A DNA stretch of 32,000 nucleotides from Raphidiopsis brookii D9 (GTDB lineage Bacteria; Cyanobacteriota; Cyanobacteriia; Cyanobacteriales; Nostocaceae). This document shows positions 12,397 to 27,153 of this stretch, one piece after another; position 1 is the first letter of the stretch; every line of letters begins with the position of its first letter. The stretch spans positions 95,753-127,752 of the forward strand of contig ACYB01000020.1 in NCBI GenBank assembly GCA_000175855.1, given 5' to 3'. A program made the position numbers and the translations under genes. A model generated the notes under the pieces. The model did no database searches. It worked only from the letters and a program-made list of their open reading frames with translations, and had not been told where the DNA came from.

Positions 12397-12415
12397 TATC
12401 AGCTGGTTGTCTCTG

Positions 12416-12491
12416 GGGGTGGGTTTTTACCGTGATAAAACATTGGCGATTTGTTCGTGAATTAGTTATGATGTTTGGTAAATACCACCCC
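12416..12491. terminator. imperfect long-range inverted repeat between the convergent cpcG and ABC-permease genes (possible bidirectional terminator)
   Basis: GGGGTGGGTTTTTACC (12416-12431) pairs with GGTAAATACCACCCC (12477-12491). That gives about 14 bp with one bulge and one mismatch. The first arm carries a T5 run. The loop is long (45 nt), so this call is tentative. Confidence 0.3.
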
Positions 12492-12518
12492 TATTATTAA
12501 ATGTTTTTAAATAAACTT

Positions 12519-13347
12519 TTACGGTGTTCGTTTCAGAGAACTTTCATGCCATTTTCCTAAAAGTAAATTTGAGAAGGCGGTCAAAATCAAAAATATCAAA
12601 ATTCCTAGCGCACTAATCATTATTAAAGCCGCAAACATACGAGGAATTTGTAAATTATAACTAGCCATGAGCATTTGATAAGCTAATCCCGAATTAGTAC
12701 CTCCACTTCCAGCAACAAATTCCGCAACTACAGCACCAATTAATGATAACCCACCGCTAATCCGCAAGGCAGATAAAAAATAGGGTAGTGCACTGGGTAA
12801 TCTTAAATAAACCATAGTTTGCCAGGGATTCGCTTTATAGAGACGAAATAGATCCCGCAAGTTTGGATCAATGCTATTCAGTCCAAAAGTGGTATTAGAA
12901 ATGATGGGAAAAAAGGCCACAATCCAAGCACAAAGTACCAAAGCAGCAAAGGTATTATTTCTCAGCCAAATAATAATTAAAGGCGCGATCGCCGCTATTG
13001 GCATTGTTTGCAGAATTACCGCATAGGGATATAAGCTTTTTTCAATCCATTTGCTCTGAGCCATAATCATAGAAATTAATAACCCTAAAACTGCTGCATA
13101 AAAAAAAGCCACGACGGTAATTTTTATGGTAATCAGCAAAGCGGGAAATAAAATAAACCAGTCACTAATTAAGGTTTGTATAATTCGACTGGGAGAGGGT
13201 AGAAGATAGGGAGGTATACCAGTAATTTTTACCAAAATCCCAGGTAAATATGGCGAAAATTCCTACTCCAATTGGGGCGATAATATCTGGAGATAGTAAA
13301 TTTTTAATTTGGAGTTTTTCAGAGAATAATTTTTTCAACCAACTCAT
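12519..13347 (-). pseudogene. ABC transporter permease (NitT/TauT family), N-terminus separated by a frameshift
   Basis: The main ORF 12519-13235 (TTG start) begins VKITGIPPYLLPSPSRI, the conserved block that normally follows TM1. The ORF 13165-13347 encodes MSWLKK...LLSPDIIAPIGVGIFAIFTWD, which is the missing TM1. Deleting one T from the coding-strand TTTT run (plus-strand A4 at 13234-13237) gives ...FTWDLVKITGIPPYLLPSP in one frame. Confidence 0.8.
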
Positions 13348-13391
13348 ATAATTCTTTCTTCAGTTGTTTTAAATAAACACGAAATCTGCTC

Positions 13392-14162
13392 TTAACCCAT
13401 GATTCCGGAGGATAATTCATGGGCTACTTGCTGACAATATTGGGAATAGACAAGGGAAGTACGAAATTCTTCCGAACGGGGATAGGGTTGGTCGATCACA
13501 ATATCCGCCACTACTCGACCGGGACGAGGTGCCATGACCACCACCCGATTGGATAAATAAACTGCTTCATAAATATTGTGAGTGACAAAAATAATTGTCC
13601 AACTTTGTTGACTCCATAAATTAAGTAACTCCACATTTAATTGAGTGCGGGTAATATCATCTAAAGACCCAAAAGGTTCATCCATAAGTAATACCATGGG
13701 AGAGGTGACTAAAGTTCTGGCGATCGATACCCGCATTTTCATCCCTCCAGAAAGCTGACGGGGATAAGATTGAGCAAACTTTTCTAACCCAACCAATTGT
13801 AGGGATTTGTTAATTGCCAGATCCGCCATATTTTTCGGGATTCTAGCTAATTTTAAGGGTAAACGAACGTTTTCCTGTACTGTAGCCCAGGGCATCAATG
13901 CCGGTTCTTGGAAGACAAAAGAGAGATTTTTTTGAGCAGTGAGATTGTGCCATTGAACTGTTCCTGAATTGTGATTAGTCAGTCCGGCAATAATCCTAAG
14001 TAAGGTACTTTTCCCACAGCCGGAAGGCCCTACCAAACTAACAAATTCACCAGCATTAATCGTCAAATTTAAGTTAGTCAGAGCAAGGATATCATTGTCA
14101 AAAAACTTATTTATCTGACTTAAGGTAATCAAAGGTTGAGAATTCATCAGTGATTTTTTCAT
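13392..14162 (-). CDS. ABC transporter ATP-binding protein (NitT/TauT family)
   Basis: Walker A GPSGCGKST, ABC signature LSGGMKMRVSIAR and Walker B VLLMDEPF. It lies between the SBP and permease genes on the same strand. Confidence 0.92.
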   Translation of the reverse strand: MKKSLMNSQPLITLSQINKFFDNDILALTNLNLTINAGEFVSLVGPSGCGKSTLLRIIAGLTNHNSGTVQWHNLTAQKNLSFVFQEPALMPWATVQENVRLPLKLARIPKNMADLAINKSLQLVGLEKFAQSYPRQLSGGMKMRVSIARTLVTSPMVLLMDEPFGSLDDITRTQLNVELLNLWSQQSWTIIFVTHNIYEAVYLSNRVVVMAPRPGRVVADIVIDQPYPRSEEFRTSLVYSQYCQQVAHELSSGIMG

Positions 14163-14237
14163 TCTATCTATTTGTTGACTCTCCCCACGCCTAAAGGGGA
14201 TGCTCTGGTATATAATGGCTACATTAATTATATTAAG

Positions 14238-15278
14238 CTAGGAGTTTTTATAATAATCCATTCCCTTATTCACAAACCTGAGAGTATAAGCCTGTTTGTA
14301 ATTTGTCTTGGCATCAACAATACCCACGGACACTAAATCTTTAAATAAAGTTTCCCAGCGTTGGTCGTTCATTGCCCCAATTCCCAAAGTTTTAGCATCT
14401 CCTGACATAATTACCTCATAAGCTTTTAGTTGATTAAGTCCATAATCCATCAAATCTTCAGTCATTTCTGGGTTATCTTTTTTAATCAGTTTATTGGCGG
14501 GTTGAGGATTTTCCAGATAACTATACCATCCCTTAATTGATGCATCAACAAACTGTTGCACTAAGTCTGGATTGGTTTCGACTAATTTTTTAGTAGTTTC
14601 TATGGTAAAAGCATAGGGATTATACACTGCATCAGCTAAGAGTAATATATTAGGTTTAAATCCACCTTCTTTTTCAATTGTATAAGGTTCGGATGTTAAT
14701 AAACCTTGTTGGGCGGAATTTTTATCCAATAAAAAGGGGCTTACATTAAAATTATAAGGGCGTTTTTGGTCATCACTTAACCCATATTTTGCTTTGATTA
14801 TCGGCCAATAGTCTACCCCGATACTGAGATAAATTGGTTTGCCTTTTAAGTCCTCAAACGAATCATTACCAACTCCAGGATGGGTTAATAAAACTTGGAT
14901 TTCTTTTTGAAAAATAGAGGCAACAGTTATTTTTGGAATCTCTTGTTCTACGGCTTTAATGGCATTAAGACCGCCCCCAATTATGAAATCAACAACCCCT
15001 CCCATCAATAGTTGGGTTCCATTCGTTTGGGGACTACCCGGTTGAATGGTGACATCTAGTCCATATTGGCGATAAATTCCCTTTGCTACTGCTTGATAAA
15101 ATCCACCATATTCTGCTTCCGCTTTCCAAGAAAGCAGAAGTTTAATAGATTCGGCAGATTGTGAACTTGAAAATGTAGAACTTGACTGACTGCAACCGGT
15201 AGAAATGCTACCAGCCAAAGCTAAAGAACTCAGTTTGATGAATTGACGACGTTTGAGTTGATAATATTTTTCCATCAT
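14238..15278 (-). CDS. ABC transporter substrate-binding lipoprotein (NMT1/THI5-like, NitT/TauT family)
   Basis: Tat-like/lipoprotein signal KRRQFIKLSSLALAGSISTGC. The protein is about 346 aa with a periplasmic-binding-protein composition and is the first gene of the three-gene importer. The substrate is unknown. Confidence 0.8.
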   Translation of the reverse strand: MMEKYYQLKRRQFIKLSSLALAGSISTGCSQSSSTFSSSQSAESIKLLLSWKAEAEYGGFYQAVAKGIYRQYGLDVTIQPGSPQTNGTQLLMGGVVDFIIGGGLNAIKAVEQEIPKITVASIFQKEIQVLLTHPGVGNDSFEDLKGKPIYLSIGVDYWPIIKAKYGLSDDQKRPYNFNVSPFLLDKNSAQQGLLTSEPYTIEKEGGFKPNILLLADAVYNPYAFTIETTKKLVETNPDLVQQFVDASIKGWYSYLENPQPANKLIKKDNPEMTEDLMDYGLNQLKAYEVIMSGDAKTLGIGAMNDQRWETLFKDLVSVGIVDAKTNYKQAYTLRFVNKGMDYYKNS

Positions 15279-15506
15279 TTTTTATGGTTTGAGTTGGATC
15301 CCATAAACTTTTACAGATTTACACAACTATTATTAATGATTTAGGGTATTTTTGGCAATATGGCGGTATGCAGCCAGATTGATTGTATAATTAGGAAGTT
15401 AACTAACTAGACAATGGGTGAAATTGTTCACGACTAGACCAAGACTAATATAAATAATTTAAATAGATAGTATAAGATTCAACCATTATTAAAAACAATA
15501 ATAAAA

Positions 15507-16157
15507 ATGAAAAACACATTAACACAGGAAGAATTAAATCAAATTATTCGAGAGGTGCAATCCTTAGAATTACGTCAGGAGTCAGAATTTGATCGAGAAC
15601 AGATTCAGGAAATATTGAGGGAGTTGAACTTACCACCAGAATTATTAGATCAGGCCTTAATTGGACTACATAATCGTCAAAGACTAGAAGTGAAAAAGCG
15701 CCGCAACAAATGGATAGTTATGGGTACAGTTAGTGTAGTTAGCGTAATTGTTCTTGCCATAGGATTTTTTAATCAAAAACAGGCTAACTTGCTAACCAAG
15801 GTTTCTGTCCAACAGGATAAAATTGTTCTAAGTAGTCAACTAGATGCAAAAAATGTTACCATGGAGAAGATTATTCCCAAAGACGCTATTAATCCTCAAT
15901 CCAACAGTGAGATTTTATATGTCGTAACCTTAAAAGATGCACCCCTGGGGAGAAAATTATCTATGAGCTGTAATTGGATAAATCCCCAGGGCGAAATTGT
16001 CAAGCAGAATAATTATCAAACTCGGGAAATTAAAACCTCTGTTTGGGAAACCCGCTGTCGTTATTCAGTGGATACTGATGTATCCACTGGTAATTGGCAA
16101 GTAGAGATGTTTCTGGAAAATCGAGAAATTAGCCAGGAACAGTTCGTCATTAAATAA
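15507..16157 (+). CDS. hypothetical single-pass membrane protein
   Basis: 216-aa ORF. It has an N-terminal charged helical region, one TM segment (WIVMGTVSVVSVIVLAIGFF) and a C-terminal beta-rich domain with 2 Cys. I recognise no family. Confidence 0.55.
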   Translation: MKNTLTQEELNQIIREVQSLELRQESEFDREQIQEILRELNLPPELLDQALIGLHNRQRLEVKKRRNKWIVMGTVSVVSVIVLAIGFFNQKQANLLTKVSVQQDKIVLSSQLDAKNVTMEKIIPKDAINPQSNSEILYVVTLKDAPLGRKLSMSCNWINPQGEIVKQNNYQTREIKTSVWETRCRYSVDTDVSTGNWQVEMFLENREISQEQFVIK

Positions 16158-16196
16158 TTTTAATTAAATTAAATAGATGTGAACTCACTTTTTCTG

Positions 16197-16226
16197 TTGA
16201 CAGTTTATATGGTGAGATGCTAGAAT
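16197..16226 (+). promoter_or_regulatory. candidate sigma-70-type promoter for the AsnB-like/decarboxylase-like operon
   Basis: TTGACA (16197-16202), an 18-nt spacer, then TAGAAT (16221-16226). It lies about 38 nt upstream of ATG 16264. Confidence 0.4.
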
Positions 16227-16263
16227 AGCAGCGCGGCGAAGGCTTGGTATATCAGGTAAATGT

Positions 16264-18099
16264 ATGAACAGGGAATCCCTTAAGGAAGGAAGCGTCAACA
16301 ATCATATTATTGGATATTGTAGTGACAAGCAACAAGAAAAGCTAACCAGAAAGATCCAGGGTAGAAAAAAAACCATCAAAAATGGCAAATTTATTTGTGA
16401 AGTAATTGACATTGGATACAAAACGGTAGCTAGAAGAGGGAAAAAAACCGCCAGAGGAGAGAATATTGATCATGTTATTGTCAGCATTTGTGCAGGGAGA
16501 ATTGGCAATGCTGACATTTGGGTAAAGTGGGAACATAACAAGTTAATTTTGGGTAGAGAAATATTTGGCAGAGTTCCCTTATTTTGGACCTGTACAAAAG
16601 ATGTTATTTGGTTTAGCTCCCAGTTACAATTACTTTTACAGATTCTGGATAAATGGGAAATTTATCTTCCTAGTTTATATAGTTATTGTTGTTTCTCATA
16701 TATAACTAATCCCCTAATGCCCGTGGAGGGAGTATTCTCTGTAATTGCGGGTCAAGAGATAGTTTTTAGTCTGGATAATCACTTTAATGAAGCAGGAAAT
16801 ATTCCCCCTAAGATTAATTCTCCTCAAGTTAGAACAACTTATCAATGGCGGGAAAATCCAGAGAAGATAACCGATGAAACAGTGGCAATTTACCAATTGC
16901 AGAACTTATTGAAAAATGCCATAGAAAACCAAGTTCAGGATTTAAATCATGAACCTGTAGGAGTTTTTTTATCTGGTGGTTTAGACTCTTCTATAGTTGC
17001 TGCTTTGTTGGTAGAATCTGGAGTGAAAGTTCGTGCTTATGCTTTAGACTTTGGTGAGTTTGGCACTTCTGAATATCCATACGCGCAAAAAGTAGCAGAG
17101 TTTTTGAACATACCTCTTGTGAAAGTTGATGTGAGTCCTAAAAATATTAAAAAAGCCATTATTCCTACAGTTAAAGCCCTAGATTTACCCTTCGGTGATG
17201 GTGTTACCGTTCCCCTATATTTAATCAATCAAATTGCCTCACAAGAAACTCAAATTGTTTTTAATGGCGAAGGGGGAGATCAACTGTTTGCAGGTTGGAC
17301 AAATAAACCCCTAATTGCTGCTGGCGTTTATCAAAATCAATATTCCCAACATCCTGAAAATGCCAGTTTTATTCAACAATATCTACACACCTTTCATCGT
17401 CTATGGGGTTATGAATCCAAAGTATATCAGGCAGAAACTTATGACCAGATTCGGCAATTAAATGCCCAAGAATGGCTATTAGATGCTCTCGATAGTCATT
17501 TTTGTCCTTCCTTGTTACATCGTCTGCGTCGTGCCAACTTAATGTTAAAAGGATCCCAAAATATTCACCCCCGTGCTACAGCCATTAGTTTTGCAAATGG
17601 TTTAAATGTGCGATCGCCATTTTGTGATTTAGCCCTAGCTGAATGGACATTTCAGCTATCCGGAGAATTGTGTTTACAAGGTGCTTGCGAGAAGTATATT
17701 CTCAAACGTGCTGTAGAAAATTGGCTACCAGCAGAAATTGTATGGAGACAAAAGCGGGGTATGGGGGTTCCCCTGACTTCCTGGTGTTTAAATGATTTAT
17801 GGTATGATCTGGGTAACTGGCTAAATCCAGGTATTCTAGGAGAAGAAAATATTTTTTATCCCGATATAGGGATAAAAGTTATCACAGGAAAATTAGGAGG
17901 AAACATCCATGGGAGACGGATAGGTGAGATACTTTGGTTACTAATTATGTGGCAACTTTGGTACACTCACGTTTTTGGTGTTAACCCGACAGCAACGTCT
18001 AGCAAAAAGTCCAGCAATCATCCATTTTTACTACCCTATTGGTTATGGAAAGGATACAGAAAGTTCACCGAAAATCTGATGGAGAGTCTCCCGGTTTAG
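16264..18099 (+). CDS. asparagine-synthetase-fold (PP-loop) ATP-dependent amide/lactam-forming enzyme, no N-terminal Cys nucleophile
   Basis: PP-loop VGVFLSGGLDSS (SGGLDS = 16972-16989), FNGEGGDQLFAGW and RQKRGMGVPL. A residual Ntn-domain block GREIFGRVPLFW is present. The N-terminus is MNRESLKEG... rather than MCG, and the N-domain is short and Lys/Arg-rich. Confidence 0.8.
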   Translation: MNRESLKEGSVNNHIIGYCSDKQQEKLTRKIQGRKKTIKNGKFICEVIDIGYKTVARRGKKTARGENIDHVIVSICAGRIGNADIWVKWEHNKLILGREIFGRVPLFWTCTKDVIWFSSQLQLLLQILDKWEIYLPSLYSYCCFSYITNPLMPVEGVFSVIAGQEIVFSLDNHFNEAGNIPPKINSPQVRTTYQWRENPEKITDETVAIYQLQNLLKNAIENQVQDLNHEPVGVFLSGGLDSSIVAALLVESGVKVRAYALDFGEFGTSEYPYAQKVAEFLNIPLVKVDVSPKNIKKAIIPTVKALDLPFGDGVTVPLYLINQIASQETQIVFNGEGGDQLFAGWTNKPLIAAGVYQNQYSQHPENASFIQQYLHTFHRLWGYESKVYQAETYDQIRQLNAQEWLLDALDSHFCPSLLHRLRRANLMLKGSQNIHPRATAISFANGLNVRSPFCDLALAEWTFQLSGELCLQGACEKYILKRAVENWLPAEIVWRQKRGMGVPLTSWCLNDLWYDLGNWLNPGILGEENIFYPDIGIKVITGKLGGNIHGRRIGEILWLLIMWQLWYTHVFGVNPTATSSKKSSNHPFLLPYWLWKGYRKFTENLMESLPV

Positions 18100-19334
18100 T
18101 TACAGATCCAACTACGAGTCCCACCATACCTTTTTCCTTAGAATTGGCTGAGGAATTGTTAGGTACTTATGGCTCTCCTCTGTACGTTTACGATAGCGAC
18201 ATTTTAAATCAAACCATTGCCCATATTACCAAGTCCTTTAAATATCCCGAAACCAGATTTTATTTTGCCACTGTCACCAATGGTAATATTGCCCTGTTGA
18301 AAGTTTTTAAAAATGCCCATTGGGGACTACATGCGAACACACCGGGAGATATTTATTTAGGGTTAAGTGCAGGGTTTGCACCCGATAGCATTATATATAG
18401 CGGTACTAACTTAAATCGGGAGGAGATAGAGCAGGTATTAAGTTGGGGTGTAACTACCCTAAATTTGGATAGTCTTGCCCAAGTGCAATTGTTATGTGAA
18501 GTTTGTTCATCTCTTAAAAATACAGCAGGAAAAGGGAAAAACTTAAATACATTTAGTCGATTAAACCAGTTAGATATTGGACTGCGGTTAAATGTTGGAG
18601 GAGAGAGTCGAATTGGGGTGAGATTACAAGACTTTAACACAGCGATTGCTATAGCCAAAAATGTGGGATTGGAGATTTCAGGTTTACATTTTTATCGAGG
18701 TACAGGAACTAATGCGACCAAAGCATTCACCGATGCAATTGATGAAGTTTTAGTAGCTGCTCAAAATTTACCACACTGGAAATATATAGACTTTGGTGGT
18801 GGTTTTGGTTATCCCTATAATCACCAAGGAATTGCTTTTGATTGGGAATTATTTGGAGGAGAGATCATTCAAAGAATTAGTAACTTAGATAGAACAATCA
18901 AATTAATCATTGAACCAGGACGTGCTGCTATAGCTAGTTGTGGTACTTTACTGGCCAAAGTTGTTTCAGTCAAATGGCAAGATAACAAGCAAATTTTAGG
19001 AGTAGATTCCACAGTTGGTAATATTGCTGTCCCCTCCGTTTATGGAGGTTATCGAGAAATTATTAGTTGGAAAAATCACAGTCCTAAATATATCACAGAT
19101 ATTTGTGGAAATACCACCTACTCACGGGATTATCTGGGTAAAAATTGCCAACTTCCCTCTCTAGAGATGGGAGATATTATCGGTATTTTAGACGTAGGTG
19201 CTTATGGTTATGCTATGTCCTCTCATTTTTTACATCGTCCTAAACCAGGAGAGGTATTATTGGAGAATAGTCAACATCGTCTAATTAGAAACCGGGAGGA
19301 CTACAGTGTTTTATTGACTAATCAGATATGGTAA
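18045..19334 (+). CDS. Orn/DAP/Arg-decarboxylase-fold (LysA-like) protein with apparently substituted catalytic residues
   Basis: Fold-type III blocks GSPLYVYD, IDFGGGFGYPY, EPGRAAIASCG and GAYGYAMSS. The ATG at 18045 (TTG 18039 in the track) overlaps the end of the upstream gene by about 55 nt. The expected yAxKAN lysine reads FATVTN (Val codon at 18273-18275). Confidence 0.75.
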   Translation: MERIQKVHRKSDGESPGLVTDPTTSPTIPFSLELAEELLGTYGSPLYVYDSDILNQTIAHITKSFKYPETRFYFATVTNGNIALLKVFKNAHWGLHANTPGDIYLGLSAGFAPDSIIYSGTNLNREEIEQVLSWGVTTLNLDSLAQVQLLCEVCSSLKNTAGKGKNLNTFSRLNQLDIGLRLNVGGESRIGVRLQDFNTAIAIAKNVGLEISGLHFYRGTGTNATKAFTDAIDEVLVAAQNLPHWKYIDFGGGFGYPYNHQGIAFDWELFGGEIIQRISNLDRTIKLIIEPGRAAIASCGTLLAKVVSVKWQDNKQILGVDSTVGNIAVPSVYGGYREIISWKNHSPKYITDICGNTTYSRDYLGKNCQLPSLEMGDIIGILDVGAYGYAMSSHFLHRPKPGEVLLENSQHRLIRNREDYSVLLTNQIW

Positions 19335-19360
19335 TAGTTATTATTTTCAAGTGTTGGGCT

Positions 19361-19400
19361 AGATTACTGTAGATTACTTTAGATCAATCAAGATTACTAA
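19361..19400. repeat. four tandem 10-bp units (consensus AGATTACTnn) immediately upstream of ATG 19405
   Basis: AGATTACTGT AGATTACTTT AGATCAATCA AGATTACTAA occupy 19361-19400 head to tail. Three units share 8/8 core bases; the third unit is degenerate. Confidence 0.85.
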
Positions 19401-19404
19401 AACC

Positions 19405-20709
19405 ATGAAATGTGTAAACTGCGGAACTGATAACAAGCTAAGGGACAGAAAAGAAAGGAATGGAAGATGTAAACAATGTCATCACCAGTTCACTTTTGAA
19501 CCAACAGATATGGGAGCGGTAAAAATTACAGATGCCATGTTTTCTAAAACGTTGGCTGATATCTCTGTCAATCATACGTTACATTTTACAAATAAACAGT
19601 TTTTATATTTTTTAGATAGTCGTCTGAAGAAGAAAGCATTTAAATCCTCTGGTTTTTGGATACTGTACTTTTCGTTGAGTATTTTCCTAGCATCTATTTT
19701 TGGAATAGTGGGCAATTTAATTTTGCAAGTGTTATTTGTTACTTACTTATTTCTCCTTGCTCAGTCCAATAAACTTGATAGTTTTACTCGCAGAAATAGT
19801 GCCAAGAGATTGGTGTTTGTTGGCGTATTCATCTTAATATTTAGCACATTATTGTGGTGGTCATCTTACAATGTAAACTTGATTTTTTATTCCTTCACCT
19901 TTTTAGGAATCTTGTCAGTATTATTGGGAATACTCCAATTAGTCAGGATTAAAAATTCACGAGACTTAGGATATGATAGTCAAGAATTTTTAATTACTCA
20001 GTCAAATGTCAATGATTGGTTAGCAAGATGGCAATTATTGAATGGCAAAGTTGATAAAATCTTACCGGAAACACCAACCGAAATTGAAGCAGCATCTATT
20101 AATCCAGAAATAACCGCTTACAGTTTTGATAGACTAGTGGTTTGTAGTAGTCCCAGTATAGCTCAAGTGTTAATTGCTAATAACTTACATTTTGAGCATA
20201 ATTGTGCAATTTTAAGTATGAATGGTTATCCTGAAAATATTTTTGGGATAACCATGGAAATGTTAAAAAGAAACCCTAATTTACAGATTTTTGCTTTACA
20301 TGATTGTAGTCCTGAAGGTGTGAGTTTAGTAAATTATATTCGCACCGATGAAAATTGGTTTTTAAATAGTCAACTCCCCATTATTGATATTGGGTTATTA
20401 CCAAGACAAATTCTAGGCAATAAGGGAGGAATGTTTATACAAAATACAGCTACCTCAGCGGAAAAATCCAAGAACTTACCCATGGAAATTCGTCAAACTC
20501 TATCTGCTCAAGAATTAGCTTGGTTAGATGCTGGTAACTTTATCGAGTTAGAATCCTTTTCACCACAAACATTGATTCAAGTGATTAGAAATGCTATTTC
20601 TAGAAGTTTTGATTTAGTACCTGATAGTAATGGTTTATTAGTAATCAGCGATCCAGTTAATTATGTTGATACTAATAATAGTATTTACATGATTGAAAGT
20701 TTTGGTTAA
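19405..20709 (+). CDS. Zn-ribbon / polytopic membrane protein with uncharacterised C-terminal domain
   Basis: N-terminal CxxC...CxxC (MKCVNCG...GRCKQCH) and about 4 hydrophobic segments (FWILYFSLSIFLASIFGIVGNLIL..., LVFVGVFILIFSTLLWW, LIFYSFTFLGILSVLLGIL). The roughly 210-aa soluble C-terminal domain contains RLVVCSS...ILSMNGYPEN...FALHDCSPEGVSL. Confidence 0.6.
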   Translation: MKCVNCGTDNKLRDRKERNGRCKQCHHQFTFEPTDMGAVKITDAMFSKTLADISVNHTLHFTNKQFLYFLDSRLKKKAFKSSGFWILYFSLSIFLASIFGIVGNLILQVLFVTYLFLLAQSNKLDSFTRRNSAKRLVFVGVFILIFSTLLWWSSYNVNLIFYSFTFLGILSVLLGILQLVRIKNSRDLGYDSQEFLITQSNVNDWLARWQLLNGKVDKILPETPTEIEAASINPEITAYSFDRLVVCSSPSIAQVLIANNLHFEHNCAILSMNGYPENIFGITMEMLKRNPNLQIFALHDCSPEGVSLVNYIRTDENWFLNSQLPIIDIGLLPRQILGNKGGMFIQNTATSAEKSKNLPMEIRQTLSAQELAWLDAGNFIELESFSPQTLIQVIRNAISRSFDLVPDSNGLLVISDPVNYVDTNNSIYMIESFG

Positions 20710-20724
20710 GTTTATACATAAAAT

Positions 20725-22455
20725 TCATCGTTGGGATTTATTGACCTGTAACCAAATTTCTAAACTAACCAACAACCATAATTTCACACCATATCTTCCC
20801 CAAGTATCACCTTGAAAATCCAACCAGTTACGGATAATATCCTGATTTATATAGTTGGCAATTTCACCGTTTTTGTTCAATAACAATTTTCTGGCTTGTT
20901 TTTGCCAATATTTTCTAAACCCTAATTGTACGGGAACCATCATACCACTTTTAGGACGCTGAATGATTTCCTTAGGCAAAATATTACTGACCGCGTTTTT
21001 AAAAACGGCTTTTTCCTCAACTCCTGAAAGTTTATACTCCGGAGGAATTTGCATACTAAAATCAACTATACGCCGATCAAATAGAGGTGATAACCCTTGC
21101 AAACCAGCTCCTTGAGTGAGATTATTAACCTTGGTTAAAATATGGTCTGCTCCCTTAAATTTGATATTTAATATCATTAATCTGTTGAGATAATTTATCT
21201 TAGCATTTAAATCATCAACAAATACACAGGGTTGGTTTACTAGAGTCTGCCAAACTTCAGTTTTTAGCAGTTGCGGTAGGTCTAGAGCGCATTTTTGAAA
21301 AGATATTAAATAGGCTTTTAAAGAATCTTGATGATTAATTCTACTATATAAACTATTAATCAACATTGGTTGATTTTTGGGTCCACCAAAACAGGGATCT
21401 CCCCCTTCTCCATTCAAGATAATTTGCACATTTTCTCTAGCCAATTTGCCCAACAATAAATTTGGTACTGTCAATGGGTCACCTATAGGGTTATCCAGAT
21501 ATAACATAGTTTGTGGTAAAAGTTCCCACATTTGTTTAAATGTAATTTCTAAAATGTGATGTTCGGTTTGACAATGTTGGGCAACTAAACTAGAAAATTC
21601 GAGTTCGTTAGGTGTTTCGGTGCCAAAATGAATGGAATATGTATGAACTGGTGAATTATGAAATTTTCTGGTCAATGCTGTAATACTACTAGAATCCAAT
21701 CCACCGGAGAGAAATACTCCCACGGGTTGATTTTCAGGTAAATATTCTTTGACAACTTGTTCCAGTAAACAACGTAATTTTTCACCATACCATTCCAGAG
21801 GTTGATATGGTTCTATAATATTCTCTTTTAATTGCCAATAATGAGTAATTTCATGGGATGGAATTTTTAAAAATGTCCCTTGAGCAATTTCTTGCACATT
21901 TTGCCAAAGTGTCTTTGTTCCGGGAACAAATGCACAACATAAATAATCTCGTAATGCAATTAGATCCAACTGATGGTAGTGGTAAGGTGCAAGAGTTGTT
22001 AATTTAGGAGCTATGTAATATGTGCCACGATCAAGAGTGTAATATAAATTCTTTTTCCCTATGGCATCCCTAATCAAGTATAATTCTTGTTGGTTCCTAT
22101 CCCAAATGACAATATTAAACATTCCCAATAACATGGTCAATGATTGATGGTTGTATTTTTCCCACAGTTGGGCTACTATTTGTTGATCACTAATTTCAGT
22201 ATGATTATCAAGACATAACTTTTCTAAAAGTTGCCAGCGATTACTCAACCATATATCACCCATGATAATAAATCTTTGCTTGGGACTAACACTGAAATTC
22301 TCTGAGGAAACAAAGGCGATTTTTCGATCTTGCCAAATTATCTTCTCCCTTGATTTATTGATCTCATCCAGGTTACCATAGACCACAAACCAACTGGGAA
22401 TTAAGTCAAGATGTCCCGGTGGGAATTGACGATTTGGTCCAAGTTTAAAAAACAT
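20725..22455 (-). CDS. asparagine-synthetase-fold (PP-loop) enzyme, second paralogue, no N-terminal Cys nucleophile
   Basis: PP-loop VGVFLSGGLDSS (complement of 21691-21708), LNGEGGDPCFGGP and RPKSGMMVPV. An Ntn-like domain is retained (IIMGDIWLSN..., LGMFNIVIWD, IRDAIGKKNLYY), but the protein starts MFFKLGPNRQ. The preferred start is ATG 22455, with AAGGAG (22461-22466) 5 nt upstream; the track starts at GTG 22461. Confidence 0.8.
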   Translation of the reverse strand: MFFKLGPNRQFPPGHLDLIPSWFVVYGNLDEINKSREKIIWQDRKIAFVSSENFSVSPKQRFIIMGDIWLSNRWQLLEKLCLDNHTEISDQQIVAQLWEKYNHQSLTMLLGMFNIVIWDRNQQELYLIRDAIGKKNLYYTLDRGTYYIAPKLTTLAPYHYHQLDLIALRDYLCCAFVPGTKTLWQNVQEIAQGTFLKIPSHEITHYWQLKENIIEPYQPLEWYGEKLRCLLEQVVKEYLPENQPVGVFLSGGLDSSSITALTRKFHNSPVHTYSIHFGTETPNELEFSSLVAQHCQTEHHILEITFKQMWELLPQTMLYLDNPIGDPLTVPNLLLGKLARENVQIILNGEGGDPCFGGPKNQPMLINSLYSRINHQDSLKAYLISFQKCALDLPQLLKTEVWQTLVNQPCVFVDDLNAKINYLNRLMILNIKFKGADHILTKVNNLTQGAGLQGLSPLFDRRIVDFSMQIPPEYKLSGVEEKAVFKNAVSNILPKEIIQRPKSGMMVPVQLGFRKYWQKQARKLLLNKNGEIANYINQDIIRNWLDFQGDTWGRYGVKLWLLVSLEIWLQVNKSQR

Positions 22456-22530
22456 TCTCACTCCTTACTATTGCTTAACCTGTTGGTGTAACCTTTAGTA
22501 TAACTAATCAAACTAATCATTTAACCTAAA

Positions 22531-23268
22531 ATGAATGATCAAAACATGATCAAAACAATTTTCGTTCCCCAGGGATCAGAGTACCAAGCTGTTTATCGTG
22601 GATTAAATTCTGTGTTCAGGAATTCTGTCTCTAATTCAAAGATACAAGTCATTGGCATACCTATGGGCATTTCATCACTTCAAGAATTCCTCACAAGGAA
22701 ATATCAACACCTAAAGCAATCAAATCAAAGAATATTACTTATGGGACTATGTGGTAGTCTCCACGGAAGTTATCGTGTGGGTGATACTGTATTATATGAA
22801 AAGTGTATATATGATAAAAAACAATTAGATAAGACAAATCCAGTAAACTCAATAAATCAAATAAACTGCGACATTAGTTTAACTCAAGATATATATGAGC
22901 GTATTGGAAATAGGGTATCGTTAGTGAGGGGAATAACAAGTGATACAGTAGTTTTTAAATCCTCTGAAAAACGGAGTCTACATCAAAAATTTGGTGCTGA
23001 TGTGGTGGACATGGAAGGATTTGGGTTCCTAGAGTTTTTCCAGGGAACAGGGATATCCACCGCAATACTAAGAGTTGTTAGTGATGATTCAATTCATGAC
23101 ATACCAGACTTGACCAAAGCTATCAACTCCCAAGGTTTACTGGAGATCTTACCTTTAGTAATCACTTTAACTCGACAACCTATAGCTGCTAGTCACTTAA
23201 TTAGGGGTTCACTATGCGGATTAAAGCAATTAGAGACAGTAACTAGGTGTTTAGCAATTCAGGAGTAA
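22531..23268 (+). CDS. PNP_UDP_1 (MTA/SAH-nucleosidase-like) phosphorylase-family protein
   Basis: ILLMGLCGSL, GADVVDMEGFGF and ILRVVSDD blocks typical of the nucleoside phosphorylase/MTAN fold. An alternative start is ATG 22546. Confidence 0.7.
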   Translation: MNDQNMIKTIFVPQGSEYQAVYRGLNSVFRNSVSNSKIQVIGIPMGISSLQEFLTRKYQHLKQSNQRILLMGLCGSLHGSYRVGDTVLYEKCIYDKKQLDKTNPVNSINQINCDISLTQDIYERIGNRVSLVRGITSDTVVFKSSEKRSLHQKFGADVVDMEGFGFLEFFQGTGISTAILRVVSDDSIHDIPDLTKAINSQGLLEILPLVITLTRQPIAASHLIRGSLCGLKQLETVTRCLAIQE

Positions 23269-23297
23269 GTCCCTGAAATACCCAACAAATCAGGGAC
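23269..23297 (+). terminator. stem-loop directly after the nucleosidase stop codon
   Basis: GTCCCTGA (23269-23276) pairs with TCAGGGAC (23290-23297), giving an 8-bp perfect stem and a 13-nt loop. No T tract follows, so intrinsic-terminator function is uncertain. Confidence 0.35.
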
Positions 23298-23349
23298 AGG
23301 CAAAATTGAAGCAAATTCAGTTCTTTAACAATCACTATTAAATGAATCA

Positions 23350-23481
23350 TCAAATTGCTGATAGTAGTATTTGAGAATCAAAAAACATTTTAAAAGAATC
23401 ATTAGGGACAAGTTGACGCAGATGCTGAATATAGCCATCCATATCTGACTTACTGCGAAAGCGAGCAACAATACGCTGCAT
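23350..23481 (-). CDS. candidate small protein, 43 aa (below the ORF-track cutoff)
   Basis: Hand translation of the minus strand gives MQRIVARFRSKSDMDGYIQHLRQLVPNDSFKMFFDSQILLSAI*. It lies 72 nt downstream of hlyD on the same strand. From memory it resembles a small conserved cyanobacterial protein family (xRIVARFRxRxDAE...), which is unverified. It has no strong SD. Confidence 0.4.
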   Translation of the reverse strand: MQRIVARFRSKSDMDGYIQHLRQLVPNDSFKMFFDSQILLSAI

Positions 23482-23552
23482 TAGGTTAAGTAAGAAATAG
23501 GCGTTCAGTCTAGCACTAGTTGCCAAAAGTTAGCAAGTGGATAACTAGTTAA

Positions 23553-25118
23553 TTACCTTACTTTCTGTAAGCTCTCAAATTGATTAGTAAACACATCCGT
23601 AAACAAACTCATAACGCTCCTTTCCTCACGCACTTTGATATTGGCAGTAATGGCCATACCAGACTGTAAAGCAATAGTTCTACCTTGAGATTCTATAGTT
23701 TGTTTATTTAAACTAACCCGCGCTGGAAAGCGATAAAACTGATGGGTCTGGTCAGGAGGTAAAGCATCTGAACCGATATTAGTTACTTTACCTTTGATAT
23801 CGCCAAACTCAGTAAAGGGGAAGGAATCAATTCTCACATCCACCTTCATTCCCTCCTTCACAAATCCAATATCCTTATTGGTGATAAATACCTCTGCTAT
23901 ATATTTATCATTGGGGACAATCTGGAGTAACTTTTGTGTTGGGTTAGCCACAAAACCTGGGTTTTTTGCCTGCATATCAAATATTATACCTGACACGGGA
24001 GCACGAAGTTCTTGATATTTGACGTTTAATTTTGTCTGGGAAATTTTACTGTTAATGTCTGACAATCTCTGTTCATTTTCTAAAATTATTCTCATAAATT
24101 GGCTGTCTATTTCCGCCATTCGCTTTTTGTTAGTAGCTATCTGTTCCAACACGTTCTTATCGGTGACTGCTACAGTGTTAGCTACCTCTTGTTGTGCCCT
24201 TTGAATATCAAACTGTAGACGCTTTTCTTCTTCCAACAACTGAGCTATTTCCGCTTTCAAGTTTTGCACCTGCTGTTGCTGATTGAGATATTGCAGTTGA
24301 GAAATACCTCCCTCTTTGGCGAGGACTTCTACCCTATGTAAGATTCCTTGTTGAATTGATAGACTGTTCTGTGTATCCTTTCTCTTCACTATTGTTTGAG
24401 ATAGTTGTTTCTTAATTTTTTCTACCTCGAATTTGGCCGCATTGGAGCGAGATTCTAATTCTTTTCTAGCTACAATTAGTCTTTGTTGCTCATCAATTCC
24501 TCCTCCTACTTGCGCGTTGGAATTTCCCAGTTGTGAACGTAACAATTGATTTTCTTCTACTAGAGAAATCCGACTTTTTAATAGAAATGCTGCTTCTGCT
24601 GGTAGACCACCACCCAGAAAATTCAATTCTGAACTGACAGCACTACTTGCATTCATCAAACGACGATAGATGTCATTCTCCCTGATTAAAACAGCACGAA
24701 CGTTATTGAGAGATCCGAGCTCAGCTCGGGTAGCAATGGATTCAAATGTTAATAGTAGATCTCCCTTTTTCACCTCCTGTCCATCCTTGACATGAATAGA
24801 CTCTACCACACCACTAATAGGTGCTTGTACATCCTTTACCGTACCCTCTGGTTTTAATTGTCCTGTAGCGGGAACTACTTGTTCAATTTTTGCATAATAA
24901 GCCCAACCCACGCCAAAACAGGCCACAAGCATCAAGGTAATCATGATTGTGCGTGACCAAATGGGTGATTGTCGTAAAACTATGGATTGTTCAAAGCTGT
25001 CTTGATAAGCATGACTTAAATTCCCTGCTTTGGCTTTTGATAGGGTTTGAAGTACCCCCAGATTAGTATTTTTACCATTACTATTGCCTATTGGATGATC
25101 GTTATTAAATTGAGTCAT
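23553..25118 (-). CDS. HlyD-family membrane-fusion/periplasmic adaptor protein
   Basis: N-terminal TM (TIMITLMLVACFGVGWAYY), a lipoyl-like hairpin (APISGVVESIHVKDGQEVKKGDLLLTFES), a long Gln/Glu-rich coiled coil and a C-terminal barrel (APVSGIIFD...). It is immediately downstream of the ABC exporter. Confidence 0.9.
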   Translation of the reverse strand: MTQFNNDHPIGNSNGKNTNLGVLQTLSKAKAGNLSHAYQDSFEQSIVLRQSPIWSRTIMITLMLVACFGVGWAYYAKIEQVVPATGQLKPEGTVKDVQAPISGVVESIHVKDGQEVKKGDLLLTFESIATRAELGSLNNVRAVLIRENDIYRRLMNASSAVSSELNFLGGGLPAEAAFLLKSRISLVEENQLLRSQLGNSNAQVGGGIDEQQRLIVARKELESRSNAAKFEVEKIKKQLSQTIVKRKDTQNSLSIQQGILHRVEVLAKEGGISQLQYLNQQQQVQNLKAEIAQLLEEEKRLQFDIQRAQQEVANTVAVTDKNVLEQIATNKKRMAEIDSQFMRIILENEQRLSDINSKISQTKLNVKYQELRAPVSGIIFDMQAKNPGFVANPTQKLLQIVPNDKYIAEVFITNKDIGFVKEGMKVDVRIDSFPFTEFGDIKGKVTNIGSDALPPDQTHQFYRFPARVSLNKQTIESQGRTIALQSGMAITANIKVREERSVMSLFTDVFTNQFESLQKVR

Positions 25119-25146: not shown

Positions 25147-27153
25147 TTAAAGATTGACTTCCTGTTGCTGGTAAAGGTAGAAATAGTGTCCTTTAGCAGT
25201 CATTAGTTTTTGGTGACTACCCTGTTCCACAACTCTACCGCCATCCATGACTACAATTGTATCTGAATTGCTCACAGTATTGAGACGGTGAGTGATAAAG
25301 AAAACAGTTTTGCCCTGGAATGCTTTAGCCAAGTTCAAGCATATTTGCCTTTCTGTGGGATAGTCTAGGGCACTTGTGGCTTCATCTAAAACTAATATTT
25401 TAGGTTTTTGCAGTATGGAACGAGCAATGGCTATTCTTTGTCTTTGTCCTCCAGACAGGTTCGACCCTTTTTCCCCAACTTTGGTGTTATAACCATTGGA
25501 GAGATTCATGATAAATTCATGAGCAACTGCTATTTGAGCTGCTTCCACCACTTCCTCCGTGGTGGCGTCAGGATTGGTTAGGGCTATATTATCGAATACT
25601 GTTCCATCAAATAATAGAGTATCTTGGGGAACCACACCGATTTGTCTTCTGACGGAATAAAGCTCAACCTTGCTGATGTCGTAACCATCAATAAAAATTC
25701 TCCCAGACTCAGTATTATAAAGTCTCAGGAGTAATTTCATCATGGTACTTTTTCCTGACCCACTTTGTCCCACAATGCCCACAAATGTGCCCGCTGGAAA
25801 ATCTAAACTGACGTTATTTAGTTGCAGGGATCCGTTTGTCGCAAAGCGGAAGCAAACATTTTCATATTTGACTGCACCAACAACACTGGGTAAGGGAATA
25901 TTATCTTTGTCTACTTCTGCTTCCTGAGGTGTGTCCACAATATCACTCAATCTCTCCAGGGATAATCCTGTTTCTTGGAAGTTTTGCCAGATTTGTGCCA
26001 GTCTCAATATGGGACTGGTAACATAACTAGAAATAATTCTAAAAGCAATTAATTCCCCTAGAGTTAATTCTCCTTGTAAAACTAAATAAGCTCCTACCCA
26101 TAATACTAACAAGCTACTTAGTTTATTGAGAAACTGACTAGTAGAATTAGCTAATGTTGATGTAATAACTGTTTTAAAACCTGCGGAAACAAACTTAGCA
26201 TAACGCTCTTGCCAAGAAAAGCGCGATCGCAGTTCAATATTTTGGGCCTTTACCGTTTGAATACCAGACATTACCTCCACTAAATAGGACTGGGTAGTGG
26301 CATTGCGTTCTGCTTTTGTGCGCAATTGTCGGCTAACAGTAGGAGCAGCAATTAATGTAATCACGACAAAGAGGGGAATAGTTCCCAGTCCCACCAAGGT
26401 TAGTTCCCAACTATAAAACACCATAACGACGATATAGATCACAGAAAATATCGCATCCAGTCCAACTGTCAAAGCTGTTCCTGTGAGAAACTGGCGAATA
26501 TTTTCTAACTCATTCACCCGAGTAGCTAATTCCCCCACGGGTCTGCGTTCAAAATAACGCAGTGGCAGTCTGAGTAAATGATCAATAATTTGTGAACCCA
26601 ACCCCATATCAATGCGGTTAGTGGTATCTACGAATAAATAGGTTCGTAAGGTAGTTAATATGGCTTCAAACACACCAACCGCTAATAGTAATACCCCCAA
26701 AACATTCAGGGTACTAATACTATTTTGTACTATGACTTTATCGATAATTAACTGAATAACCAGTGGATTTGCCAATGCGGCCAGTTGTACAAAAAATGAA
26801 GCAATAAATACTTCTATTAAAACCCGGCGGTAACGTGATAAGTAGGGGAGAAACCAACGTAGTCCAAAGCGCTCTTGAGGGGTTTCGGAGGTGGGACTAA
26901 TCTGGAGGACTTTGATTTGAGATTCCGGATTAGTATCATCAGTTGGTATTTGCTCTAGCAGTTTGGTGGGTTTATAGTTGATTATTCCCTGGGATGGAAT
27001 AGCTACAACTATTCTACTTGCATCTGCTTCATAAACCACAGCATAACCATCCCGGTGTTGGATAATAGCTGGTGTCTGAATCTCCGCAATTTTATTGGGA
27101 TGAATATCTACTAACTGGGATTTTAACCCAATAACTTCCCCACATAGGCGCAA
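25147..27153 (-). CDS. ABC exporter, 3' fragment: C-terminal half of the C39-like domain, ABC transmembrane domain and NBD
   Basis: Six-helix ABC_membrane region, Walker A GQSGSGKST, signature LSGGQRQRIAIAR and Walker B ILVLDEATSALD. The track start is TTG 27153, but the reading frame continues the upstream 344-aa ORF after a 1-nt frame change. Confidence 0.9.
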   Translation of the reverse strand: MRLCGEVIGLKSQLVDIHPNKIAEIQTPAIIQHRDGYAVVYEADASRIVVAIPSQGIINYKPTKLLEQIPTDDTNPESQIKVLQISPTSETPQERFGLRWFLPYLSRYRRVLIEVFIASFFVQLAALANPLVIQLIIDKVIVQNSISTLNVLGVLLLAVGVFEAILTTLRTYLFVDTTNRIDMGLGSQIIDHLLRLPLRYFERRPVGELATRVNELENIRQFLTGTALTVGLDAIFSVIYIVVMVFYSWELTLVGLGTIPLFVVITLIAAPTVSRQLRTKAERNATTQSYLVEVMSGIQTVKAQNIELRSRFSWQERYAKFVSAGFKTVITSTLANSTSQFLNKLSSLLVLWVGAYLVLQGELTLGELIAFRIISSYVTSPILRLAQIWQNFQETGLSLERLSDIVDTPQEAEVDKDNIPLPSVVGAVKYENVCFRFATNGSLQLNNVSLDFPAGTFVGIVGQSGSGKSTMMKLLLRLYNTESGRIFIDGYDISKVELYSVRRQIGVVPQDTLLFDGTVFDNIALTNPDATTEEVVEAAQIAVAHEFIMNLSNGYNTKVGEKGSNLSGGQRQRIAIARSILQKPKILVLDEATSALDYPTERQICLNLAKAFQGKTVFFITHRLNTVSNSDTIVVMDGGRVVEQGSHQKLMTAKGHYFYLYQQQEVNL

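Follow-up and report, generated by a model that had tools for sequence, protein, structure and literature searches.

The region described here lies in a 32,000-nucleotide stretch of the Raphidiopsis brookii D9 genome (contig ACYB01000020.1, positions 95,753 to 127,752 of the forward strand), referred to below as the window, and comprises two genes of the asparagine synthetase B (AsnB) family, a gene for a homologue of the diaminopimelate (DAP) decarboxylase LysA lacking the catalytic lysine (the Lys-less LysA-like protein), and two genes for membrane proteins. An earlier note, made from the letters of the window, had singled out most of these genes as an orphan enzyme cluster suggestive of secondary metabolism. 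The features that it listed were all recovered where it had placed them, including the 55-nt overlap of the first two genes of its gene string and the 15-bp gap between the convergent genes. Comparison with other genomes revealed that the region is a vertically inherited five-gene module and not a strain-specific orphan metabolite cluster. The module consists of a gene of the family that our sources name DUF3859, followed by AsnB1, the Lys-less LysA-like gene, open reading frame (ORF) 4 and, in convergent orientation, AsnB2. Its components are the following (window coordinates).

15507 to 16157, plus strand: DUF3859 membrane protein (PF12975), 216 aa, first gene of the block.
16264 to 18099, plus strand: AsnB1, 611 aa; PF00733, E = 5e-58, and a GATase_7 trace below the cut-off.
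16972 to 16992, plus strand: intact PP-loop SGGLDSS (ATP pyrophosphatase motif) of AsnB1, from sequence and alignment.
18045 to 19334, plus strand: LysA-like protein, 429 aa from ATG 18045 (ORF 18039 to 19334); PF02784 and PF00278.
18273 to 18275, plus strand: Val codon at the position of the pyridoxal phosphate (PLP) Schiff-base Lys, residue 77, from alignment to solved DAP decarboxylases.
19405 to 20709, plus strand: ORF4, 434 aa; zinc ribbon, helical domain, about four transmembrane (TM) helices and a Toprim-like domain.
20695 to 20706, plus strand: extreme C-terminus of ORF4 (ESFG), a near-invariant ending.
20725 to 22455, minus strand: AsnB2, 576 aa from ATG 22455; PF00733, E = 2.4e-69, and GATase_7, E = 6e-16.
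21688 to 21708, minus strand: intact PP-loop SGGLDSS of AsnB2, from sequence and alignment.

Relatives of the LysA-like protein, sought in one genome per species with two family-specific peptide motifs (WGLHANTP and D[VI]CGNTTY), were present in 444 species genomes. Gene neighborhoods were counted by tblastn searches of the window proteins against the best 80 of these loci, with the loci having enough flanking sequence as denominators (71 to 75 for adjacent genes and 50 for neighbors within 10 kb). The upstream DUF3859 gene (about 206 aa) was collinear in 71/71 loci, and AsnB1 and ORF4 were each collinear in 74/75. AsnB2 was found within 10 kb in 32 of the 50 loci, convergent and downstream in 26 and upstream in 6. 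The same survey detected the PNP gene that lies beyond AsnB2 in 4/50 loci, cpcG in 7/50, and HlyB or HlyD of the neighboring exporter in 0/50. These counts set the boundaries of the unit at five genes, including the gene at 15507 to 16157 and excluding the PNP gene and the exporter. The earlier note had thus recognized the core genes but had left out the DUF3859 gene; the PNP gene within its range and the exporter string that it described next to the cluster are incidental neighbors. When all ORFs of the 80 loci were clustered all against all, no further conserved family was present in more than 26 of the loci. The genes are therefore a real co-localized unit, and the scattering of homologues that would have spoken against one is decisively contradicted by collinearity in 71 to 74 of 71 to 75 loci.

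Wherever a genus was named among the best 80 loci, it belonged to the filamentous cyanobacteria, including Nostocales and oscillatorian genera such as Microcoleus, Lyngbya, Limnoraphis, Coleofasciculus and Aerosakkonema. In Nostocales and Oscillatoriales alike, the order of the four genes is kept although their flanks differ. The same block is found in Anabaena azotica, Raphidiopsis, Limnoraphis and Aerosakkonema, with ORF4 in one or two copies and a convergent AsnB2, flanked in one genome or another by a phycocyanin operon, glycosyltransferases or a periplasmic binding protein. The module proteins share 60 to 72% identity across filamentous cyanobacteria, and the window copies of ORF4 and of the LysA-like protein are 93% and 99% identical, respectively, to proteins of Raphidiopsis-type assemblies. 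This degree of conservation, with vertical inheritance, is what replaces the orphan, secondary-metabolite-style cluster of the earlier note. Base composition is flat across the region and gives no sign of a horizontally acquired island, an explanation that was rejected; a defense system was rejected as well, PADLOC models having returned nothing relevant, as was a secondary-metabolite cluster that would work with the neighboring exporter. An Rfam scan of positions 12300 to 24000 gave no match and hence no riboswitch clue.

Solved DAP decarboxylases can be aligned with the LysA-like protein over its whole length. Its translation is likely to start at ATG 18045, since the homologues begin with ME..., and this start yields an overlap of exactly 55 nt with the end of AsnB1; the two genes overlap by 43 nt in L001 (Anabaena azotica) and by 13 nt in L004. 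Four sites that define true LysA are replaced: the PLP lysine of YAVKAN is a Val (FATVTN), the stacking His of HxHxGS is a Tyr, the Cys-Glu of CESGD is Thr-Tyr, and the RP-motif Arg, which binds the distal carboxylate, is a Val. The motifs that hold the phosphate and the pyridine ring of the cofactor, namely, the GGG loop, EPGR and GAYG (with its Tyr), are nevertheless retained. The four replacements and these three motifs were invariant in 13/13 family members (67 to 73% identity), whereas the same positions were K, H, C, E and R in 81 to 87 of 87 Lys-bearing representatives. Other family-invariant motifs are FA[ST]VTNGN, HANTPGD, HFYRGTGTNAT and CGNTTYSRDYLGKNC. The score against the LysA model TIGR01048 was 246.1 bits for a curated cut-off of 297.9 bits.

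The full-library HMMER search with the LysA-like protein recovered the cyanobacterial family as one 50%-identity cluster, the next tier of matches being at 39 to 41% identity. Among 126 full-length representatives aligned from this search, the lysine was absent from 39, which had Met (23), Val (7), Phe (6), Ser (2) or Gly (1) instead. In these 39 sequences, the stacking His was mostly a Tyr (35/39), the Cys-Glu positions were occupied by neither Cys nor Glu, and 36 to 39 of the sequences kept the GGG loop, the Tyr of GAYG and both the Glu and the Arg of EPGR. By this alignment, the LysA-like protein is part of a broad clade without a name in which the lysine is lost and the cofactor pocket is retained. 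An NCBIfam scan of ten distant Lys-less relatives provided no family name; LysA was below threshold for nine of the ten, the tenth, P0368, exceeding the LysA cut-off (324.8 versus 297.9 bits). Searching the PDB with a Lys-less outgroup member retrieved no solved structure of the clade. Its representatives, which span P0365 to P0510, include fusions to a spermidine-synthase domain (P0478) and to an S-adenosylmethionine (SAM) methyltransferase (P0386), and literature searches on Lys-less DAP decarboxylases (DAPDC) fused to spermidine synthase returned nothing relevant. One further protein, P0378 (543 aa), joins an AsnB synthetase domain to the C-terminal sheet domain of the Lys-less protein, the latter with 62% identity to its window counterpart; this protein could be a genuine fusion or else an artifact of a frameshift across the overlapping gene pair.

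AsnB1 consists of an AsnB-family adenylating (PP-loop) synthetase domain and a degenerate Cys-less N-terminal domain of variable length, and AsnB2 of an AsnB-family synthetase domain and a recognizable Cys-less glutaminase-like domain. The two paralogues are 26% identical, and both keep the synthetase motifs SGGLDSS and NGEGGD. For AsnB2, which converges on ORF4 with a gap of 15 bp (20710 to 20724), ATG 22455, located 5 nt after the Shine-Dalgarno sequence AAGGAG, is a likelier start than the GTG listed at 22461. The window proteins begin with MNRES... (AsnB1) and M(RM)FFKL... (AsnB2), neither having the nucleophile Cys. AsnB1 homologues begin with M..HFIGYWG, again without Cys, and AsnB2 homologues begin with MLFNxFK..., followed by an extension of about 25 residues and then by a Cys1-equivalent position that varies (C, R, F or L). 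The MC- start that exposes Cys1 after removal of Met was absent from the listed homologue N-termini of both paralogues. The absence of the Cys nucleophile and of the PLP lysine, as called in the earlier note, is thus correct and holds across the whole families.

The scores of AsnB1 and AsnB2 were 174.6 and 232.8 bits for the asparagine synthetase B model TIGR01536 (cut-off, 267.1 bits) and 96 and 142 bits for PRK09431 (cut-off, 499 bits). In an alignment with 1ct9, the TTIRAS motif of Escherichia coli AsnB, which contains Arg325, corresponds to IGDPLTV in AsnB2, without Arg. AsnB1 carries a PFGDGVTV(P)-type motif at this place, as deduced from its pairwise alignment with AsnB2 rather than from a direct alignment with 1ct9. 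We take Arg325 to be the Asp-binding residue of the E. coli enzyme. Judged from these comparisons, AsnB1 and AsnB2 are members of the superfamily but not of the AsnB equivalog. Together with the score for TIGR01048, the TIGR01536 scores and the replaced catalytic residues speak against the genes being housekeeping AsnB and LysA orthologues. AsnB1 homologues differ widely in the length of their N-terminal domain, and many Nostoc proteins (L018, L021, L023, L026, L041, L044 and others) contain N-terminal low-complexity or repeat insertions, such as NLSPNLSPTRGEALNFPPSL, which are sometimes duplicated. This variability fits a domain that would have been freed from catalytic constraint.

The remaining two genes encode membrane proteins. 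PF12975 (DUF3859) matched 24 of 26 members of the first family, with a best E value of 8.8e-06, the window copy being below the reporting threshold. The DUF3859 protein has a conserved cytoplasmic helical N-terminus, one TM helix (residues 67 to 90) and a C-terminal beta-rich domain with two invariant cysteines, C155 and C184. This architecture suggests that the cysteine-containing domain is located outside the cytoplasm, and it is probably extracytoplasmic.

ORF4 had been described in the earlier note as a zinc-ribbon membrane protein. The ribbon and the TM helices were confirmed, but a Toprim-like domain and a nearly invariant C-terminus had been overlooked. The CxxC...CxxC ribbon is invariant (C3, C6, C22 and C25), and, given the approximately four helices of the TM scan, it lies on the cytoplasmic side of the membrane, as does the Toprim-like domain. 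Its 1523 homologues carry no functional name, one being labeled just 'toprim domain-containing protein'. PF21180, the Toprim domain of Topo VI A/Spo11, matched 27 of 27 family members (best E = 8e-07), and the window protein scored 18 bits for a threshold of 24.1 bits. A full-length AlphaFold model had a predicted local distance difference test (pLDDT) score of 53.6, falling below 50 in the C-terminal domain, and was not used. With a model of the C-terminal domain by itself (pLDDT, 58), Foldseek returned Topo VI A as the top seven PDB matches, all of them weak (E of about 2e-3; TM scores of 0.37 to 0.41). The ORF4 domain and the Toprim domain of Topo VI A/Spo11 share a GYP and D-x-x-P-x-G motif pattern. 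However, the metal ligands are altered in ORF4, VVEK being replaced by VVCDS, with Cys for the catalytic Glu, and DxDP by HDC(S/N)P. Unlike Topo VI A, ORF4 lacks the 5Y-CAP/winged-helix DNA-cleavage domain, is membrane anchored and is encoded in an enzyme operon. The protein ends with [E/Q/D][S/N/T]FG-COOH almost without exception, the final FG being found in 120/120 database homologues and in 83/87 homologues from the loci, and its C-terminal tail is predicted to be disordered (pLDDT below 50). Several genomes contain a tandem duplication of ORF4 (L001, 8626 to 11299; L004, 11293 to 13735; and L011, L017, L046, L062, L067 and L077). One of the Aerosakkonema copies is reduced to 372 aa but has kept the Toprim-like domain.

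ORF4 may already have appeared in surveys of filament-specific genes. Table 4 of Stucken et al. (PMC2821919) equates all2344 with CRD_00085 among some ten 'core' genes confined to filamentous cyanobacteria and lists CRD_00077 as a HEAT-repeat PBS lyase. In the Raphidiopsis genome L002, cpcE is located exactly eight genes upstream of ORF4. The numbering of that table, combined with this gene order, indicates that ORF4 is probably the orthologue of all2344, an assignment made from gene order rather than from alignment. A passage of PMC12669612, published in 2025, still refers to all2344 as uncharacterized and present in most filamentous lineages. Literature searches with the tags all2343 to all2347 and alr2343 retrieved all2344 as an uncharacterized gene and did not confirm its identity with ORF4, and the cluster members of the Trichormus DUF3859 protein yielded no name from PCC 7120. 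Two other candidates from PCC 7120 were rejected: alr0538 to alr0543, downstream of cpcG4, are unrelated (alr0540 is putA), and the middle genes of all1765 to all1770 are glycosyltransferase-like. Literature searches found no published work on the gene block and nothing relevant on DUF3859 or on AsnB and LysA in cyanobacteria; for AsnB, Anabaena and peptidoglycan amidation, they yielded non-cyanobacterial precedents only.

The module is not restricted to cyanobacteria. Scanning of metagenomes with the closest Lys-less outgroup identified high-GC non-cyanobacterial contigs in which the same four cytoplasmic and membrane components recur in a different order. In L085 (62% GC), genes for a secreted SH3b-domain protein, a LysA-like protein (with Val), an AsnB1-type protein, an ORF4-like protein and an AsnB2-type protein follow each other on one strand. 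The ORF4-like protein of this contig shares the zinc ribbon and the motifs of ORF4, has two TM helices and ends in GFG after an acidic tail of Gly/Ser type. In L086 (71% GC), LysA-like, ORF4-like and AsnB2-type genes are found together; the ORF4-like protein lacks TM helices and ends in DDEVG, and it keeps the motif HDADWEG. In L087, an AsnB2-type gene adjoins the LysA-like gene. The AsnB genes of L085 pair reciprocally with AsnB1 and AsnB2, indicating that both paralogues are ancient parts of the module. The SH3b-domain protein of L085 occupies the place of the cyanobacterial DUF3859 gene, and the DUF3859 membrane protein is a cyanobacterial addition to the module. The AsnB1-type protein of L085 (9170 to 9200) begins with MSGICGFVG, which puts a Cys, after four extra residues, at the place expected for an N-terminal nucleophile. 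The ancestral AsnB1 may have been a true glutamine amidotransferase with its nucleophile.

Comparison with characterized systems identified partial likenesses and no pathway that matches, the tests for asparagine synthetase B, lasso cyclase, LysA and the exosortase-associated pair all being negative. Passages of PMC8554201 and PMC5485061 describe amidation of the meso-DAP of peptidoglycan by AsnB-family enzymes, and a passage of PMC7920481 places the LtsA reaction on lipid intermediates. As portrayed there, Bacillus subtilis AsnB, Listeria monocytogenes AsnB and Corynebacterium glutamicum LtsA are AsnB-family enzymes that adenylate a diamino-acid carboxylate of a peptidoglycan precursor. These amidotransferases are glutamine dependent and have an N-terminal Cys, which AsnB1 and AsnB2 lack, and they act alone, with no LysA-like partner, ORF4 or DUF3859 protein.

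Lasso cyclases of the McjC type, beta-lactam synthetase and CarA likewise have the AsnB fold without the glutaminase nucleophile, and in them the adenylated carboxylate is captured by an amine of the substrate rather than by glutamine-derived ammonia. However, AsnB2 and AsnB1 scored 178.1 and 44.3 bits, respectively, against the lasso cyclase model NF033535 (cut-off, 525 bits), and no lasso B-protein, RiPP (ribosomally synthesized and post-translationally modified peptide) recognition element (RRE) or short precursor was detected among the Pfam domains of the window neighbors or the conserved families of the 80 loci. Lasso-type systems also differ from the module in that its distribution is universal and vertical.

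Decarboxylases of the DAPDC fold that use ligated or tethered substrates and whose genes are coupled to an ATP-dependent ligase include BtrK, the N-citrylornithine decarboxylase FslC and MccE, and BtrK and FslC were among the solved relatives of the LysA-like protein in PDB searches. To our knowledge, BtrK, FslC and MccE all keep the PLP lysine and the catalytic residues. In contrast, the LysA-like protein has Val in place of the Lys and has also lost the His, Cys and Glu. Antizyme inhibitor, an ornithine decarboxylase-fold pseudoenzyme that was a weak PDB match (4zgz), has the same fold but functions through binding, its decarboxylase activity having been lost, and is not known to bind PLP any longer. 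Because the whole cofactor-binding set is kept in the Lys-less clade, a repurposed enzyme or a ligand binder is likelier than a protein of the antizyme-inhibitor type.

Pairs of AsnB-family and DAPDC-family proteins are encoded together in the exosortase A-associated, envelope-related (exopolysaccharide) locus. The window proteins scored far below the corresponding cut-offs (146.9 and 229.6 versus 816.9 bits for TIGR03108; 116 versus 478.45 bits for TIGR03099), and no exosortase or PEP-CTERM gene was detected by the Pfam scan of the window or the clustering of the 80 loci. The tabtoxin cluster, to which the earlier note had drawn an analogy, combines an AsnB-fold enzyme (TblS) with a LysA homologue (TabA). 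No other tabtoxin-type gene, such as a neighbor of the TabB, TabC or TabD type, is present here, and conservation and distribution are those of a housekeeping module; neighborhood and distribution thus lend no support to membership. Finally, LysW/AmCP is a zinc-ribbon carrier with a flexible acidic C-terminal tail that functions with an ATP-dependent LysX-type ligase. LysW is small and soluble and its ligase is of the ATP-grasp rather than the AsnB type, and attachment to ORF4 is hypothetical.

The interpretation that we tentatively prefer is that the module is a membrane-tethered, ATP-dependent amide-bond-forming machine of filamentous cyanobacteria. Each AsnB paralogue would adenylate the carboxylate of a substrate, and an amine of a source other than glutamine would then react with the acyl-adenylate. 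The LysA-like protein, as the translationally coupled partner of AsnB1, would bind or present an amino-acid-type amine without classical decarboxylase action, and ORF4 would organize the enzymes at the inner membrane face. Three targets were ranked for this machine. The first, by analogy, would be a precursor of the envelope that contains a diamino acid, for instance, the stem peptide of peptidoglycan in its lipid-linked form; it is a possibility of modest weight, favored because AsnB-family enzymes amidate meso-DAP, because the partner derives from a DAP enzyme, because the system is membrane bound, and because an SH3b-domain protein is the neighbor in L085. The second, slightly less probable, would be a soluble amino-acid or polyamine-type metabolite, considered because the cofactor pocket is kept and because the clade includes fusions to polyamine and methyl-transfer enzymes. 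The third, which we regard as rather improbable, would be the C-terminal tail of ORF4 as a substrate or carrier, considered because of its invariant FG.

Several observations weigh against the amide-bond-forming machine at the membrane. Its steps are predictions from sequence. Among the 80 loci, genes for peptidoglycan or envelope functions do not recur next to the module with any consistency. The residues by which true LysA recognizes DAP (RP-motif Arg and Cys-Glu) are replaced, so that DAP recognition is an analogy only. Membrane anchoring is not universal, since the ORF4-like protein of L086 has no TM helix, and the structure models of ORF4 are of low confidence (pLDDT, 54 and 58). AsnB2 is absent from the 10-kb flanks in 18 of the 50 loci. 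Last, the Lys-less clade keeps the cofactor pocket and is elsewhere fused to spermidine synthase or a methyltransferase, which points to soluble small-molecule chemistry. A more specific proposal, which we consider possible although doubtful, is that the module is a new enzyme system marking filamentous (multicellular) cyanobacteria, in which the AsnB ligases and the Lys-less protein act on or through the FG C-terminus of ORF4, leading to a covalent modification of the envelope or of ORF4 that is required by filament biology.

The alternative that survives best, unlikely as we judge it, is a soluble small-molecule pathway in which the AsnB-type ligases build an amide-linked conjugate of the amino-acid or polyamine type. 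The Lys-less protein would then be a non-canonical PLP enzyme, with bound cofactor but no internal aldimine, that decarboxylates or otherwise transforms the conjugate, and the membrane proteins would regulate or localize the pathway. That 36 to 39 of the 39 Lys-less sequences retain EPGR, the GGG loop and the Tyr of GAYG argues for such a role and against a dead protein in the style of antizyme inhibitor, and the fusions in P0478 and P0386 and the solubility of the ORF4-like protein of L086 point in the same direction. DAPDC-fold enzymes that act after an ATP-dependent ligation are also known, BtrK and N-citrylornithine decarboxylase being among the PDB matches and others being listed in PMC8503589. 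However, classical decarboxylation is made unlikely by the joint loss of Lys, His and Cys-Glu. The 80 loci have no conserved transporter, tailoring or precursor-supply gene nearby, the exporter of the window being unlinked elsewhere (0/50), and the near-universal, vertical and highly conserved distribution is unlike that of a specialized-metabolite cluster.

Modification of a protein C-terminus appears still less probable. The FG tail of ORF4 would be adenylated by an AsnB paralogue and then either amidated or joined to an amine that the LysA-like protein holds. Parallels exist in the LysX/LysW carriers, in RimK acting on ribosomal protein S6 and in the AsnB-like amidotransferase of the thiostrepton tail. 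The FG ending (120/120 and 83/87 homologues) is kept in the distant L085 homologue, and the L086 protein ends in Gly. The tail is acidic or Gly/Ser rich and predicted to be disordered; ORF4 has a zinc ribbon, as LysW does; and ORF4 is the sole non-enzyme partner that accompanies both AsnB paralogues and the LysA-like protein across phyla. Nonetheless, this reading is purely inferential, and the conserved end could merely be a docking motif. Unlike known carrier proteins, ORF4 is a large multidomain membrane protein, and position -4 varies (E, Q or D), so that a side-chain attachment point is not conserved.

Formation of a lasso-like or other RiPP macrolactam, or a pathway of the beta-lactam synthetase or tabtoxin type, is very improbable. 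The lack of the Cys nucleophile in both AsnB paralogues, the partial match of AsnB2 to NF033535 (178 bits) and the presence of CarA and beta-lactam synthetase among distant PDB matches speak for these analogies, which the earlier note had raised. Membership is largely refuted: both NF033535 scores are far below the cut-off; the similarity of AsnB1 and AsnB2 to PDB entries is stronger for AsnB and the hydroxyamidotransferase 7ylz than for CarA and beta-lactam synthetase; no B-protein, RRE, short precursor or extra conserved family emerged from the 80 loci; non-ribosomal peptide synthetase, polyketide synthase and tabtoxin-type partners are lacking; and the distribution is universal rather than patchy. 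Chance synteny of unrelated neighbors in one lineage, which could account for the inconstant adjacency of AsnB2 and for the different flanks of the two orders, is refuted by the four-gene order kept in both orders while those flanks change, by the recurrence of the gene set in another order in high-GC non-cyanobacterial contigs and by the overlap of the AsnB1 and LysA-like genes.

Two further features had been highlighted in the earlier note.

16197 to 16226, plus strand: promoter-like TTGACA-18 nt-TAGAAT, TG-extended, sigma-70-like, 11/12 match.
22531 to 23268, plus strand: PNP_UDP_1 gene, divergent from AsnB2.

The promoter-like site had been proposed as the promoter of the gene string. It is present and is the best match within positions 15000 to 24000, an interval that contains 41 such sites, which is not above the shuffled expectation (35 ± 5.8). 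It lies in the 106 nt that separate AsnB1 from the DUF3859 gene. The closest relative, Raphidiopsis L002, has the same -35 element and a weaker -10 element (CAAAAT). Since the gap is shorter than about 20 nt in most other genomes, the site is lineage specific and at best internal to the unit, and it is possibly a lineage-specific internal promoter.

The PNP_UDP_1 protein obtained its best score with HpnG (hopanoid-associated phosphorylase), far below the cut-off (64 versus 187 bits), and its gene adjoins the module just in Aphanizomenon/Anabaena-type relatives (4/50). The exporter string, on the minus strand, encodes PpiC, a cyclic nucleotide (cNMP)-binding/HlyB protein and HlyD; the NCBIfam scores exceeded the cut-offs for HlyB (729.3 versus 725.55 bits) and HlyD (223.7 versus 208.65 bits). 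The HlyB-type ABC exporter (25147 to 28157) is apparently split by a frameshift inside a C39-like domain. ORF 27123 to 28157 (minus strand) encodes the cNMP-binding domain together with the beginning of the C39-like domain, and ORF 25147 to 27153 (minus strand), which overlaps it by 31 nt in a different frame, contains the remainder of C39, the transmembrane domain and the nucleotide-binding domain. The Peptidase_C39 score, which was 17.1 bits and thus below the cut-off, rose above it (25.9 bits) when the two ORFs were joined, with the match spanning the junction. The split gene is either a pseudogene or the result of a sequencing error.

Upstream of the module, a series of ORFs at 5996 to 12396 (plus strand) is apparently a phycocyanin (cpc) operon by comparison with the annotated L002 genome; ORF 11635 to 12396 (cpcG), the one ORF of this region compared by sequence, is 99% identical to its L002 counterpart. 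Three ORFs occupy positions 12519 to 15278 (minus strand) between the last cpcG and the DUF3859 gene. Two of them, an ABC-importer ATPase and a substrate-binding protein, were recognized by sequence; the third is ORF 12519 to 13235 (238 aa). The phycocyanin operon directly adjoins the module in Raphidiopsis L002 and Anabaena azotica L001, indicating that the segment at 12519 to 15278 is a local insertion or rearrangement. Adjacency of cpc genes to the module (7/50 loci, all of them close Nostocales relatives) reflects lineage synteny and not function.

The components of the module belong to known superfamilies, and the proposal of an undescribed system was right in spirit, if not in its boundaries, its link to the exporter or its secondary-metabolite framing. 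Hundreds of genomes carry these genes under the names 'asparagine synthase' and 'diaminopimelate decarboxylase'; these names are very probably wrong and can mislead metabolic reconstructions. The clade of the LysA-like protein, in which hydrophobic or Tyr residues have taken the places of the Lys, His, Cys and Glu and the cofactor pocket is kept, would represent one of two novelties: PLP chemistry that proceeds with no internal aldimine, or the use of this fold for ligand binding. Present in at least 444 species genomes, with 60 to 72% identity, the module is among the most tightly conserved uncharacterized blocks of filamentous cyanobacteria, and this conservation implies an important function. 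If ORF4 is All2344, the module would provide an enzymatic context for one of the approximately ten genes flagged as filament specific in Table 4 of PMC2821919 and in the passage of PMC12669612, and the role of filament-specific genes would become testable.

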